A stretch of 64,000 nt of DNA, taken from NCBI RefSeq assembly GCF_057098645.1, contig NZ_CM169472.1, one strand, 5' to 3'. Position 1 is the first letter of the stretch. Each line of letters begins with the position of its first letter. The position numbers are program-made. Of this stretch, positions 33,901-39,900 are shown piece by piece.

Positions 33901-36900
33901 CTGATGGCGAAAACCCGTCCCGGAACCGGTAACGCCTACCTGACCCGCAAGGGCTTTCCCGGCCGGGAATGCCGGATGCTGACCGGCACACACAGATCCG
34001 GTGGCGTGAGCTGGCGTGCCGGTGACCTTGTGGTGCCACTGTATGACGACAGCGGCGAACTGGTTAACCTTCAGTTAATCAGTGCTGACGGCCGTAAGCG
34101 CACCCTGAAAGGCGGACAGGTCAGGGGCACCTGTCACACCCTTGAAGGACAGAATCAGGCCGGAAAACGTCTGTGGATAGCGGAGGGATACGCGACCGCA
34201 CTTACCGTACATCACCTGACCGGTGAAACGGTGATGGTGGCGCTTTCTTCCGTGAACCTCCTTTCTCTGGCCAGCCTTGCCCGGCAGAAGCATCCGGCCT
34301 GTCAGATTGTCCTTGCCGCAGACCGTGACCTCAGCGGTGACGGCCAGAAAAAAGCCGCCGCAGCCGCAGATGCGTGTGAGGGCGTTGTTGCCCTGCCGCC
34401 GGTCTTCGGTGACTGGAATGATGCCTTCACGCAGTACGGCGGGGAGGCCACCCGTAAGGCCATTTACGATGCCATCCGGCCACCGGCTGAAAGCCCGTTC
34501 GACACCATGAGCGAAGCAGAGTTTTCCGCCATGAGTACCAGCGAAAAGGCCATGCGTATCTATGAGCATTACGGCGAGGCGCTCGCGGTTGATGCCAACG
34601 GCCAGCTTCTGTCCCGTTATGAAAATGGTGTCTGGAAGGTGCTGCCGCCACAGGACTTTGCCCGGGATGTGGCCGGGCTGTTTCAGCGTCTGCGCGCGCC
34701 GTTCTCCTCCGGGAAGGTGGCCTCCGTGGTGGACACCCTGAAGCTGATTATTCCGCAGCAGGAAGCCCCCTCCCGCCGCCTGATTGGCTTTCGTAACGGC
34801 GTGCTCGACACGCAGAACGGCACGTTCCACCCGCACAGTCCGTCACACTGGATGCGCACCCTGTGCGATGTGGATTTCACCCCGCCGGTGGACGGTGAAA
34901 CGCTGGAGACCCACGCCCCCGCGTTCTGGCGCTGGCTTGACCGTGCCGCCGGTGGCCGTGCGGAAAAACGCGACGTGATTCTGGCCGCACTGTTTATGGT
35001 GCTGGCAAACCGCTATGACTGGCAGCTCTTTCTGGAGGTGACCGGTCCCGGCGGCAGCGGCAAAAGTATCATGGCCGAAATAGCCACCCTGCTGGCCGGT
35101 GAGGATAACGCCACGTCGGCCACTATTGAGACGCTGGAATCCCCGCGTGAACGTGCCGCGTTAACTGGCTTCTCACTGATACGCCTGCCGGACCAGGAAA
35201 AATGGAGCGGCGACGGTGCCGGACTCAAGGCCATCACCGGCGGCGATGCGGTGTCCGTGGACCCGAAATACCGGGATGCGTACTCCACGCATATCCCGGC
35301 GGTGATTCTGGCCGTGAACAATAACCCGATGCGCTTCACCGACCGCAGCGGCGGCGTGTCACGCCGGCGGGTGATTATTCACTTCCCGGAACAGATAGCC
35401 CCGCAGGAGCGCGACCCGCAACTTAAGGACAAAATCACCCGCGAGCTGGCGGTCATCGTGCGTCACCTGATGCAGAAGTTCAGCGACCCGATGCTCGCCC
35501 GGTCACTGCTTCAGTCCCAGCAGAACTCAGACGAGGCACTGAACATCAAACGGGATGCCGACCCGACGTTTGATTTTATCGGCTATCTGGAAACCCTGCC
35601 GCAGACCAGCGGCATGTATATGGGGAACGCCAGTATCATCCCGCGTAATTACCGTAAATACCTCTATCACGCCTATCTGGCCTACATGGAGGCAAACGGC
35701 TACCGGAATGTACTCAGTCTGAAAATGTTCGGGCTGGGGCTGCCGGTGATGCTGAAGGAATACGGGCTGAATTACGAGAAGCGCCATACCAAACAGGGGA
35801 TACAGACCAACCTGACGCTGAAAGAGGAAAGCTACGGCGACTGGCTGCCAAAATGTGACGACCCTGCAACAACCTGACCCACCTGACCGGCATCTGCCGG
35901 TCTTTTTTTATCCCGACATCCCCCGAAGGTGAACAATCCACTGTTCACCCTTCACCGTATATTCACCCGTTATCACACTGAAATTAAAAGAGAAAAACGA
36001 AAGGTGAACAGTGTGAACAATCAAATCAAAAAAAACTTTTTTCTCCCTGCGTGATTTTCAGTGCAGGGGACTAATCGCCGGTATGAGTCACACCGGCAGA
36101 ATACCGGAGGTGAAGAATCGAATGTTCACCCTTCACCCATTATTCACCACCTATCATACTGAAATAAAAGGAGAAAAAAGAAAGGTGAACAGTGTGAACA
36201 GTTCTTTCGAAAAAAAATTTTTTTCCTGAGTTAACGTGCGTGAAGATACGTGTAAAAATTAATCGATAGATATTATATGTATAAGGATGTGTATAAATGA
36301 ATTATACTAGAAAAATATAAACGATTTGAATCAAATGTTTATATGGCAATTTTGACTCCTGTGATCTCCGCCAAACTTCCTCTTCTGAACTCTCCCGACG
36401 TCAACAAAACCCCTTTTAATCCCTTATATATCAGGCTTTCTTTGTGTACAGGGGTCAACCGACTCAACCTGTATCAAGTTGCTTTTGAGGATACTTTAGG
36501 GGGGTATTATTTCCTTTTGAAATATTAGCACCCCATAATGGGAAAAAGGTAATACATAACAATGGTTTTTAACAGTATCTTTGTTATACAAGGGGGCATT
36601 GAGGATATCAGGAAAAATCTCAAAATCGGTACGGACAGGAAACTACGTGGGCAGCAAAAACGTATGGTAACACCGGGAAATGCAACGCCCACCAGTCGGG
36701 CTAATCCACCACTCCAATCGTGGTTCGCAGTACTGCACACACGATTACCGGGCTATACAGGAGCGGTTTGGTCTGAAAACATCCATGCCGCGTAAAGGTA
36801 ACCGTTACGACAACACCTCAATGAAAAACTTATAGTAAACGCTGAAGAATGAAACTATCGTTTTAATAACCGGGATGAAGCCATCTAAGTAATACGGAAA

Positions 36901-39900
36901 TACATTGAGATTTTCTACAACCATCAGCGCCGCCACTCCCGTCTGGGGAATATCTCCCTGGTAGCCTTCAGGAAAAATATAACCAGATAACTGCGTAAAA
37001 AAAGAACAAATGGTGGTGTCCGCTATTGCCAGTATACCTGAGTTTACTGCCTTTCAGATTATCACAATCAATAGCGAACAGACTTTTGAGCTCTGTGCGC
37101 TTTTAACAAAACGTCCCTTTCTCCACTTTCACCGTATAATAATACATTATTTATTACCCCTCCAATAAAAACCGATATTACTAATCACATTTATTACCAC
37201 ACAATTTGATATCGGTTTTTATTAGTTGGTTACCCTTTCTTCGATTGCTCATAGGCAGCTAAATGATCTTTTAATGCCTGTGCAAGGGGCGGTAGTCCAC
37301 TAGGCCCTGTCGGTGGCGGTGGTGCCTGACGGGCGGGCTTAAAACCTAAAGCCTCAGGACCTTTCGATTTTTCATAGGCAGCCAAGTGCTCTTTTAATGC
37401 CTGTGCAATGGGCGGTAAAGGTCGGGATGCCCCGGATGCCTGTCCACTTGTCGGTGGCGGCGGTGCCTGACGGGCGGGCTTAAAACCTAAAGCCTCAGGA
37501 CCTTTCGATTTTTCATAGGCAGCCAAGTGCTCTTTTAATGCCTGTGCAATGGGCGGTAAAGGTCGGGATGCCCCGGATGCCTGTCCACTTGTCGGTGGCG
37601 GCGGTGCCTGACGGGCGGGCTTAAAACCTAAAGCCTCAGGACCTTTCGATTTTTCATAGGCAGCCAAGTGCTCTTTTAATGCCTGTGCAATGGGCGGTAA
37701 AGGTCGGGATGCCCCGGATGCCTGTCCACTTGTCGGTGGCGGCGGTGCCTGACGGGCGGGCTTAAAACCTAAAGCCTCAGGACCTTTCGATTTTTCATAG
37801 GCAGCCAAGTGCTCTTTTAATGCCTGTGCAATGGGCGGTAAAGGTCGGGATGCCCCGGATGCCTGTCCACTTGTCGGTGGCGGCGGTGCCGGACGAGAGG
37901 GAGTAAATGAAGTCACCTGGCTGCTCACATTAAAAATCGTTCTCGCATTAACATTCGACGAGCCTGGAGAAAAAGGGGAATGAACTTTCACCGGAGTAAG
38001 ACGCACGGCCTGAGGGGCTACAGAAAATCCAGTTCCCCCCGCAGAGCTCACTCGACTTGCGATACCTACAAGCTGCCGCCCTAGTGTAGAAGCAGCGTTA
38101 CTAATTCCATTAAGCATAATTTATGCCTCTTTATATCTAAGCTTGGCTAACTCTCATATATATCAAAACGAATAATAAAATGATTTTTAAATCAATATAA
38201 ATTAAAATCCTCGTACCCAGCCACTACCATTCTCATGGACCAAACTGTACAATAACTGACTCGTCTCATCATCCATACAGTCCTCCAAAGCCTTTACCGC
38301 ATCATTTTTTCTATTTAATCCAAATAAGATAATAAATTCTAAATGTGCGATATCTTTTTTATCAGGTATAATTTGTGGGAATACATTCAGGATAGCTTCC
38401 GCATATTTGGGAAGCTTATGGTTTGCCGCAGCTACAGCCGCCCACACCAGTATCTTATTAGCAGAAATATCATTAACCATTAAAATTAAAAACTACGGTT
38501 AGAAATGGTTGAGACCAGATCTTTTATCGTTTTCAACATTCCACTTTCTACGTTAACATAAGCAGAATATTGCTGAACCGCAAACTGCAACTCTAACATT
38601 TTTTCAGGGTCATTAACCAAATCGGTGCTATTAAGTAACTCTGGCACAGAATCGCTCAGCGTTTTACCTACTTCACCCATTTGTTGAGTAATTTCAGATA
38701 AATTCATTAAATTTCCCTCAGAAGTTAATAAAATAAAAACTTTTAACTATTTACGTTCATTACGAACCAAATTCCGTCTTCTGTTTCTTGCTGCACGGCA
38801 CCCTTTCTGATGAAGTAATTAAACAACTCTTCGCGCTTTTGACGTTCTGAATCTGAACCAATCTTAGATTTCATCGCGCTGATTTTCTTAATACCCGAAA
38901 AATGGTGATACAACTCTTCGAGCAAATGAGTCAGCGATAAAACAGGGCCGTTAAGCCCTGTTTGGTTACGTGCTTCAAAAGAGCACAAAATCAGTTCTTG
39001 TTCATCCAGTCTGTACGCTAATGAAAAAAAAGGTGTCTCAATCCGCCATCCGATAAAAAAGGCACTGCCACAAAGAAACTCCTTCTGTATTGTGTACCCT
39101 TTTTGTTCAAGATAGTAATTAAACACTTCATCATTAAACGTATCGACCATGATCAATTACCCAGCTAAGCGACCCGATTGCCCCATACGATTCTGGACCT
39201 CAAGGAGATCGCGGACAGCGGATGTTATATCACGCAGACGAGTCGTGATATCATCCTGCGTTCTGCGAACGTCTTGTTTATACAGCTCCAGATTCCCCTG
39301 CTGGAAGTTTTCCAGCGACTTCGCACGTTGTTCATTAACCTCATGAGTCGATTTGACGGACTCAGATATTGTTGTTGGCAACGTTTTCGTACCTTCAGCA
39401 AGACTGGTCACGGCAACAAATGCTGTGGTATTGGTCAGTTTATCTACGGAATTCAACAACTTATTGATTCTGCTTGTCTTCTCGGCGGCGTCTGCAAGAT
39501 CTTCAGCAAAGTCAGAGGCTTTCGCAACATCATCTGCAACGCCAGATGCACGGCTGGCTGCTTTCGTTGTTGTGGCCATCGCTTTCTGCATCGCACTGGA
39601 TGCCTCCTCTGCGACATCAGCAACACTTTCCGTAGCCTTGACCAGAGCTTTATTTGCAACCTCAGAAGCCGCACCAGCAGCCTTTGAAGATGCAGAGCTT
39701 GCTTTTTCAGCAATCTCACCAGCCCCTTTAGCCGCGTTGTTCATTGCTGCAAAAGAACCTAAGATCCCCAATGCTGATGAAATAATCCCGCCAACCAAAG
39801 CAGCGGTTGCCGCGGCTTTTTTTTCCTCAATAGCTTTATTCTGGCTCTCAAAAACGGCCTGCTGAATCTGATAGCTTTGCGCCAATTGTTTTTGTTGGTA

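Follow-up and report, generated by a model that had tools for sequence, protein, structure and literature searches.

What lies between the selC tRNA gene and the LEE (locus of enterocyte effacement) in this genome, and did it arise where it now stands? The window analyzed here is a stretch of 64,000 nucleotides of an Escherichia coli chromosome (NCBI RefSeq assembly GCF_057098645.1, contig NZ_CM169472.1) that carries selC, then a P4-like prophage, and then a gamma-intimin LEE starting at espF. We examined the 854 bp from the prophage attR to the espF stop codon (36376-37229), in which an initial annotation had placed the remnant of an IS3-family insertion sequence (IS) and an AT-rich spacer, and which it had read as the mark of an insertion hotspot. 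It is very likely that this interval is an inert, inherited junction scar of four pieces at the espF end of the LEE, with a history that we reconstruct below. The IS3-derived share of the interval is 42%, and the remainder consists of three other pieces.

Identity of the IS600-like fragment

Positions 36683-37041 (359 bp, + strand) are collinear with positions 895-1264 of IS600, for which an intact 1264-bp copy from E. coli FDAARGOS_944 (annotated 'IS3-like element IS600 family transposase') was used as reference. Of the 368 alignment columns, 313 are identical (85% nucleotide identity, blastn E = 1e-104). The alignment reaches the very last base of IS600 and includes the right inverted repeat (IR; 37012-37041, + strand), in which 27 of 30 positions are identical to that of IS600. 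Blastn against IS600 found no similarity upstream of window position 36683. The initial annotation had pointed to broken frames with the motifs PRKGNRYDN and FYNHQRRHSRLGNISL, and both were found on the + strand in two different frames, at 36788-36814 and 36913-36960, respectively. A conceptual translation, in which stops and frameshifts were bridged, scored above the Pfam cut-offs for rve_2 (E 2e-8, 34.7 bits, cut-off 22) and rve_3 (E 1.7e-7, 31.3 bits, cut-off 26.5). Its match to rve had 21.3 bits, under the cut-off of 32.6, and covered profile positions 63-101 only. The same translation is 74% identical to the C-terminal 101 amino acids of IS600 OrfB (BLASTP E = 1e-54). As judged from these alignments, 36683-37041 is by descent the 3'-terminal fragment of an IS600-like element of the IS3 family, made up of the C-terminal third of the OrfB DDE domain and the right IR. 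The call of a decayed IS3-family transposase between attR and espF is therefore borne out by blastn, Pfam, and BLASTP alike and can be made specific to an IS600-like element; the similarity to IS3-family transposases on which it depended was decisive.

Compared to IS600 (IS3 family, IS3 group; Shigella and E. coli), the remnant shares collinearity, the C-terminal DDE part of OrfB, and the right IR, but keeps only 29% of the element and lacks OrfA, the frameshift site, the left IR, and a target duplication. The closest DNA relatives in 5,426 complete E. coli genomes and 72,556 PLSDB plasmids are 85-87.5% identical and are exclusively Escherichia/Shigella IS600 copies, and the closest protein in a 5.8-billion-protein collection is of IS600 type (~75% amino acid identity). 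A parent IS closer than IS600 was considered and rejected, as nothing in the genome, plasmid, and protein searches exceeded 87.5% nucleotide or ~75% amino acid identity. In the ISfinder naming convention, copies of the same IS share at least about 95% amino acid or 90% nucleotide identity. With 85% nucleotide and 74% amino acid identity to IS600, and 87.5% for its best DNA match anywhere, the remnant would by these thresholds be an IS600-like relative and not IS600 itself.

Two shorter similarities near the right IR were also rejected. The inverted repeat I3 (37069-37080) matches part of the right IR over 12 nt with one mismatch and could be taken for a further IS end in inverted orientation, but by our estimate about one such pair per kb is expected by chance. 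The 10-mer CCTGAGTTTA at the junction of the right IR and its flank equals positions 9-18 of the IS600 left IR; the similarity ends after 10 nt, and it was treated as chance.

The remnant itself is already known from RefSeq annotation. The Prokaryotic Genome Annotation Pipeline labels the equivalent of 36683-36998 an 'IS3 family transposase' pseudogene (frameshifted, internal stop, N-terminus missing) in strains UTME-3, E2348/69, O157:H7 Gim1-1, PV15-279, and OkiPb01684. The window copy has the same locus and limits as these pseudogenes on the espF side (BQ9544_RS21285 in E2348/69, E4U63_RS00660 in Gim1-1, and ACET1N_RS00460 in UTME-3), is 99.4-100% identical to them, and is simply another instance. 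No paper describing the remnant was found among those covered by the full-text literature searches. The early LEE sequence papers reportedly mention an IS600-like sequence at the espF end.

State of decay

The remnant is truncated at its 5' end at IS600 position 895, and orfA, the frameshift region, the left IR, and the region of the first catalytic D are gone. Deletion of the left end means that there is no pair of flanks in which a target duplication could be sought. The second catalytic D has become N in HHSNRGSQY (36707-36733), and the catalytic E has become K in SMKNL (36818-36832), which is followed directly by two stops (36818-36838 in all). The traced transposase frame contains five stops (two at 36833-36838, then 36886-36888, 36988-36990, and 36997-36999). 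Relative to IS600, the window copy has a 10-bp and a 1-bp deletion. The frame shifts twice, and the longest open stretch in the remnant is 50 codons. The tip of the right IR has changed from ...CCTCA to ...CCTGA, so that the terminal CA is now GA, and the same mutated tip is found in E2348/69, OkiPb01684, and O111:H8. Among the features of IS3-family members, an intact DDE triad, the orfA/orfB pair, and the TG...CA ends are all absent, and the rve domain is present in part. Substitutions relative to IS600 are spread over codon positions 1, 2, and 3 as 13, 11, and 18. Such a spread is what neutral decay gives, and not what divergence between two living elements gives. The remnant can neither transpose nor encode a transposase, because OrfA, the frameshift site, and the left IR are lost, catalytic residues are changed, the frame is interrupted by stops and frameshifts, and the right tip is mutated.

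The selC-island arm and the IS630 scrap

Just upstream of the interval as drawn is the attR of the P4-like prophage (36352-36375, + strand), which the initial annotation had correctly placed. It is a real, partial copy of the selC 3' end (TTGACTCCTGTGATC-TCCGCCA) from which one base is deleted relative to selC 23227-23250. The sequence GACTCCTGTGATC is present in the window solely at 23230, inside selC, and at 36354, in attR.

Positions 36376-36612 (+ strand), together with the preceding selC-like bases, are 82-83% identical over ~268 bp to sequence downstream of selC in thousands of LEE-negative E. coli. In the three strains inspected (a BL21 derivative, 1303, and Nissle 1917), the matching sequence is an intergenic arm of ~300 bp that separates selC from a tyrosine integrase gene. 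The integrase of BL21 has 71% identity to the P4-type integrase of the window prophage. The arm of the window prophage itself differs from 36376-36612. K-12 has no island at selC, and only ~16 bp after selC are common. Homology with the arm ends at 36612, which corresponds to a point 60 bp before the int start codon of BL21, and IS fragments follow. Like the arms of the BL21, 1303, and Nissle 1917 islands, the window piece has the position and homology of a selC-island left end (3' of the selC end, in the same orientation); unlike them, it lacks the tyrosine integrase gene that should follow and the 60 bp upstream of int, and its identity to them is just 82-83%. It follows an intact selC in E2348/69 and OkiPb01684 and the partial attR copy in the window. 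Because it is homologous to a selC-int intergenic region and yet has no integrase, this piece is, on the evidence of homology, what remains of the left arm of an island once integrated at selC, from which the integrase gene has been lost, and it is not IS-derived.

The next piece, 36613-36682 (+ strand), appears to be an internal scrap of ~66 bp from an IS630-family transposase gene, recognized by both nucleotide and amino acid similarity. It matches pseudogenes of IS630-family transposases with 82% nucleotide identity across 62 bp (E 4e-7 in 28 Gb searched), and 36616-36678 encodes NLKIGTDRKLRGQQKRMVTPG, of which 14 of 24 amino acids are identical to an IS630-family transposase (pairwise E 7e-8). 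IS630-family pseudogenes near nleE in O111:H8 OI-122-like modules share with it 62-66 bp from the middle of the transposase gene. Compared to IS630-family elements, the scrap has neither ends nor the TA target duplication, and its family assignment is by similarity only. An IS630 pseudogene and an 'integrase core' fragment beside rorf1/espG in O111:H8 (locus coordinates 6657-8055) were considered as a fuller version of the IS630/IS600 junction. This idea was rejected, as the rve fragment there is unrelated by alignment to both the window remnant and IS600; we take it to be IS2-like.

The initial description of the whole interval as IS remnant plus spacer thus applies to 36683-37041 and to the spacer at 37042-37229; it does not apply to the selC arm (36376-36612) or to the IS630 scrap (36613-36682).

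Distribution of the scar among LEE genomes

LEE-positive genomes were defined by a match to an escF-cesD2 probe among the 5,426 complete E. coli genomes. There were 696 of them; the whole region is present in 383, and 456 have the spacer together with at least the final 92 bp of the remnant. In enteropathogenic E. coli (EPEC) O127:H6 E2348/69 and in OkiPb01684, an intact selC is followed by the same arm, IS630 scrap, and IS600-like fragment, with no prophage between. In both, the remnant starts 308 bp after selC and has the same truncation point, indels, and stops as that of the window. The copies of the window and E2348/69 differ at 2 of 359 positions (99.4% identical), and the arms of these two are ~5.5% different. 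As a side observation, this step in divergence between the arm (~5.5%) and the remnant (0.6%) hints at a recombination breakpoint near 36580-36612.

LEEs in other settings keep less of the mosaic. In one O111:H8 LEE, there is no tRNA-Sec gene within 12 kb, and the flank is formed by a module of the OI-122 type; O111 LEEs have been reported at pheV (PMC3408504, PMC3893438). An IS3 copy abuts the equivalent of window position 36950 in this O111:H8 LEE, and the last 92 bp of the remnant, the mutated tip, and the spacer are kept at ~93-94% identity. An efa1-flanked LEE (CFSAN027346) is similar only from the hairpin behind espF onward, at ~37163. We conclude that the scar was inherited with the LEE, because the same mosaic occurs in E2348/69 and its tail and spacer occur at espF in the non-selC LEE of O111:H8. 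The IS600-like scar is old and travels with the LEE, and the insertion that gave rise to it did not take place at this genome's selC-LEE junction.

The order of genes beyond espF was also seen in O111:H8 strain 7-55 62A. Here, rorf1 (an SdiA-regulated domain protein) and espG are located ~2 kb beyond espF (locus coordinates 8196-12521), next to the espF end and not only at the opposite end of the LEE. IS3 copies separate espF from rorf1/espG, and an OI-122-like module with espL2, nleB, and nleE is found further out.

selC as a repeated integration target

The sequence between selC and the scar varies by strain. It may be absent, a complete P4-like prophage, a truncated prophage ending in ISEc8, or an island with an integrase, ISEc31, and CbtA/YeeU. 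In typical O157:H7 (Gim1-1), the prophage is truncated, the end of ISEc8 (IS66 family; ...GCTGTACGCTTAC) abuts the equivalent of window position 36402, and the attR copy and 26 bp of the arm are missing. O157:H7 PV15-279 has at selC the island with the integrase, ISEc31, and the CbtA/YeeU toxin-antitoxin genes. In a genome nearly identical to that of the window, the P4-like prophage bears copies of ISEc8, an IS3-family element, and ISEc12. At least three different integrase-borne elements are therefore found at the site across strains, and the site is truly targeted by selC-specific integrase elements and not by transposons.

The initial annotation held the IS3-family remnant to be one of several independent insertions at this selC-LEE junction, which would make the junction a transposition hotspot. 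Mobile elements do cluster here: the P4-like prophage comes with ISEc8, IS3-family, and ISEc12 copies, ISEc8 abuts 36402 in O157:H7, an IS3 copy abuts 36950 in O111:H8, and PV15-279 has a different integrase island. Independent insertions would be expected to differ in truncation point or flanks, however, and the copies do not. The truncation point, deletions, and stops are identical in the prophage-free E2348/69 and OkiPb01684, and the tail of the remnant is found at the espF end of a LEE that does not adjoin selC (O111:H8). Occurrence of the remnant in these other LEE contexts indicates that it predates the present selC-LEE junction. A hotspot origin is thus largely refuted for the IS600-like piece, and we regard it as improbable. 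The hotspot claim survives for selC as a target of integrases; the remnant, having been inherited with the LEE, is not evidence of hits at this junction.

The layout of the window, with a complete right prophage end and attR, looks ancestral to the common O157:H7 layout. The attR variant with 1 nt deleted (GATC-TCCGCCAAACTT, window 36352-36381) is identical in PV15-279 (locus ~14660-14690). That this variant is shared despite a different element in PV15-279 suggests that the occupant was replaced and attR was kept.

Spacer and hairpin behind espF

The last piece (37042-37229, not assigned to a strand) reaches from the IS end to the espF stop and is non-coding DNA that forms the terminus of the LEE. 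It has a GC content of 33.5%, compared to 41% for 36376-37229 overall and 39.8% for the LEE part of the window, so the term AT-rich spacer fits this piece and not the interval as a whole. A hairpin on the minus strand (37155-37232; inverted repeat I1) lies immediately 3' of the espF stop. Its minimum free energy is -25.3 kcal/mol (z = -3.5), and none of 200 shuffled sequences was as stable. The outer stem (AAUAAAAACCGAUAU / AUAUCGGUUUUUAUU) encloses a loop of ~30 nt, and its 3' side is U-rich. All five LEE representatives compared keep this outer stem; in O111:H8, it is retained despite a 125-bp loop insertion and a change that is compatible with G-U pairing. As a terminator the hairpin is atypical. 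The stem is AU-rich, the loop has 30 nt, the U-run is partly within the stem, and a consensus terminator scan, which reports loops up to 8 nt only, made no call. Because the outer stem is kept across all five LEE representatives, we propose the hairpin as a candidate transcription terminator of LEE4/espF. For the same reason, we infer that the hairpin (~37155-37232), and not attR, is the real conserved edge of the LEE.

Length variation near the hairpin was also observed. The 125-bp insertion of O111:H8 7-55 62A (locus ~2800-2925, equivalent to window ~37190) contains GTGAACCCCCAGAAGCTTACATAAGTAAGTGACTGGGGGGAGCG and resembles a repeat of the enterobacterial repetitive intergenic consensus (ERIC)/intergenic repeat unit (IRU) type. 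At 37225/37226, just behind the espF stop on the espF strand, a 43-bp segment (TTGGAAAACAAATAATCAATACCGATTAATCGTTTTAAATTAG in E2348/69) is missing from the window and from typical O157:H7. The segment is complete in E2348/69 and O111:H8, and a 37-bp version is present in OkiPb01684. It is bounded by a direct repeat, TTAGTTGG, and its absence looks like a slippage deletion.

If the remnant or the spacer had been co-opted for a function, as a small RNA (sRNA), a promoter, or a small protein, this could explain the 99.4% conservation between EPEC and enterohemorrhagic E. coli (EHEC). The lower divergence of the remnant from E2348/69 (0.6%) relative to the neighboring arm (~5.5%) and the conservation of the espF-side hairpin across LEE lineages would agree with such a role. 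We nevertheless consider co-option very unlikely. The neighboring LEE genes escF/cesD2 are also 95-100% identical, so that hitch-hiking is explanation enough. Much or the whole of the remnant is missing in the O111:H8 and efa1-type LEEs. The interval is not enriched in promoter-like or terminator-like sites relative to shuffled sequences, and its open reading frames are short chimeras without Pfam hits. A known RNA was looked for and rejected, as Rfam gave no match in 35800-37400 at E values up to 1. The LEE sRNAs known so far have other locations, sRNA350 in the cesF 3' untranslated region and Arl opposite ler (PMC5030294, PMC8565820).

The weakest alternative, that the IS similarity is a chance or low-complexity artefact and that there is no IS remnant, has next to no probability, since nothing was found in its favor and it is already refuted by the blastn E value of 1e-104 over 368 columns including the terminal inverted repeat, by Pfam matches to rve_2 and rve_3 above curated cut-offs, and by the BLASTP E value of 1e-54.

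Setting of the locus

The selC gene (tRNA-Sec) is located at 23156-23250 of the window and is followed by the integrase gene of the P4-like prophage (23413-24591). The primase-helicase gene of this prophage is at 33544-35877. Just 3' of it are two 120-nt direct repeats (35923-36042 and 36104-36223), which are 83% identical, 181 bp apart, and rich in GTGAACA/TGTTCACC motifs. We take these repeats to resemble the iteron blocks of the P4 ori/crr type.

On the other side of the scar, espF (37230-38117, minus strand) is the first LEE gene met. The gene is 888 nt long and includes 4.2 copies of a 141-bp repeat (37308-37895, 99% matches). It has one 47-amino-acid proline-rich unit more than the 747-nt espF of O157:H7 Gim1-1 and PV15-279, and is of the same length as espF in strain UTME-3.

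Proposed history of the junction

The limits and identity of the pieces, the inactivation of the remnant, and the occurrence of the mosaic in further LEE lineages were observed, and from here on it is the order of events that we infer. At a time when LEEs of the selC type and of the O111:H8 type had not yet diverged, an IS600-like element would have inserted ~120 bp past the LEE4 hairpin. The LEE core of the selC-type lineage would have been carried on a selC-integrating island with a P4-type integrase beside selC. The IS630-like and IS600-like insertions may then have been followed by IS-mediated adjacent deletions, in which the island lost its integrase gene, the IS630-like element was mostly removed, and the IS600-like element was deprived of its 5' 70%. 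This would have left the LEE without its own integration module, and with the arm, the IS630 scrap, and the IS600 tail as what remained. selC would have stayed intact, and a P4-like prophage would have integrated later in the lineage of the window, so that the scar came to lie beside attR.

The LEE's far end, which is located beyond the window, bears on the loss of the integrase. In E2348/69, the one genome in which that end was searched, the 8 kb around it contain no sequence that matches the selC 3' end with up to 3 mismatches, and setC is truncated. A far end with no selC repeat and a truncated setC is consistent with a fixed, non-excisable island and with the proposed history of integrase loss.

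Several observations weigh against parts of this reading. No intermediate was found in which an integrase is still joined to both the arm and the LEE, and the junction between the arm and the IS630 scrap is absent from the LEE-negative genomes searched. The arm need not belong to the LEE's own backbone and could derive from an older, unrelated selC island that received the LEE core by recombination. With ~5.5% divergence in the arm and 0.6% in the remnant, the pieces may also differ in history, for example through recombination with other selC islands. The role proposed for the hairpin has against it the AU-rich stem, the 30-nt loop, the lack of a call in the terminator scan, and conservation without compensatory change. 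When 100,044 species-representative genomes were scanned by exact pattern, neither the junction of right IR and spacer nor the hairpin gave a hit (0 in both scans), though diverged copies would escape such scans. They add no further genomes, and support for the antiquity of the scar stays within E. coli.

We put forward tentatively, as a possibility with somewhat less than an even chance, that the scar documents a loss of mobility. The selC-type LEE would have started as an integrative island with its own integrase and would have been immobilized by IS-mediated deletion, and the IS600-like right end, which selC-type and O111:H8-type LEEs share, would be the ancestral joint that coupled the LEE core to different tRNA-island backbones.

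Implications

The remnant matters little in itself. It is a dead and already annotated pseudogene with no sign of function. The dissection of the rest of the interval into a selC-island arm, an IS630 scrap, and a hairpin edge was not found in the literature searched, and is a small refinement. For the practical delimitation of the LEE, the conserved part would end at the hairpin (~37155-37232) and not at attR. The scar is usable as a phylogenetic marker, as its truncation point, indels, and scraps are common to EPEC O127:H6 and EHEC O157:H7 and partly to O111:H8. Because it is shared, it would also order events in the evolution of the LEE, with the IS insertion before the lineage split, the loss of the integrase module next, and the arrival of selC-specific elements later.

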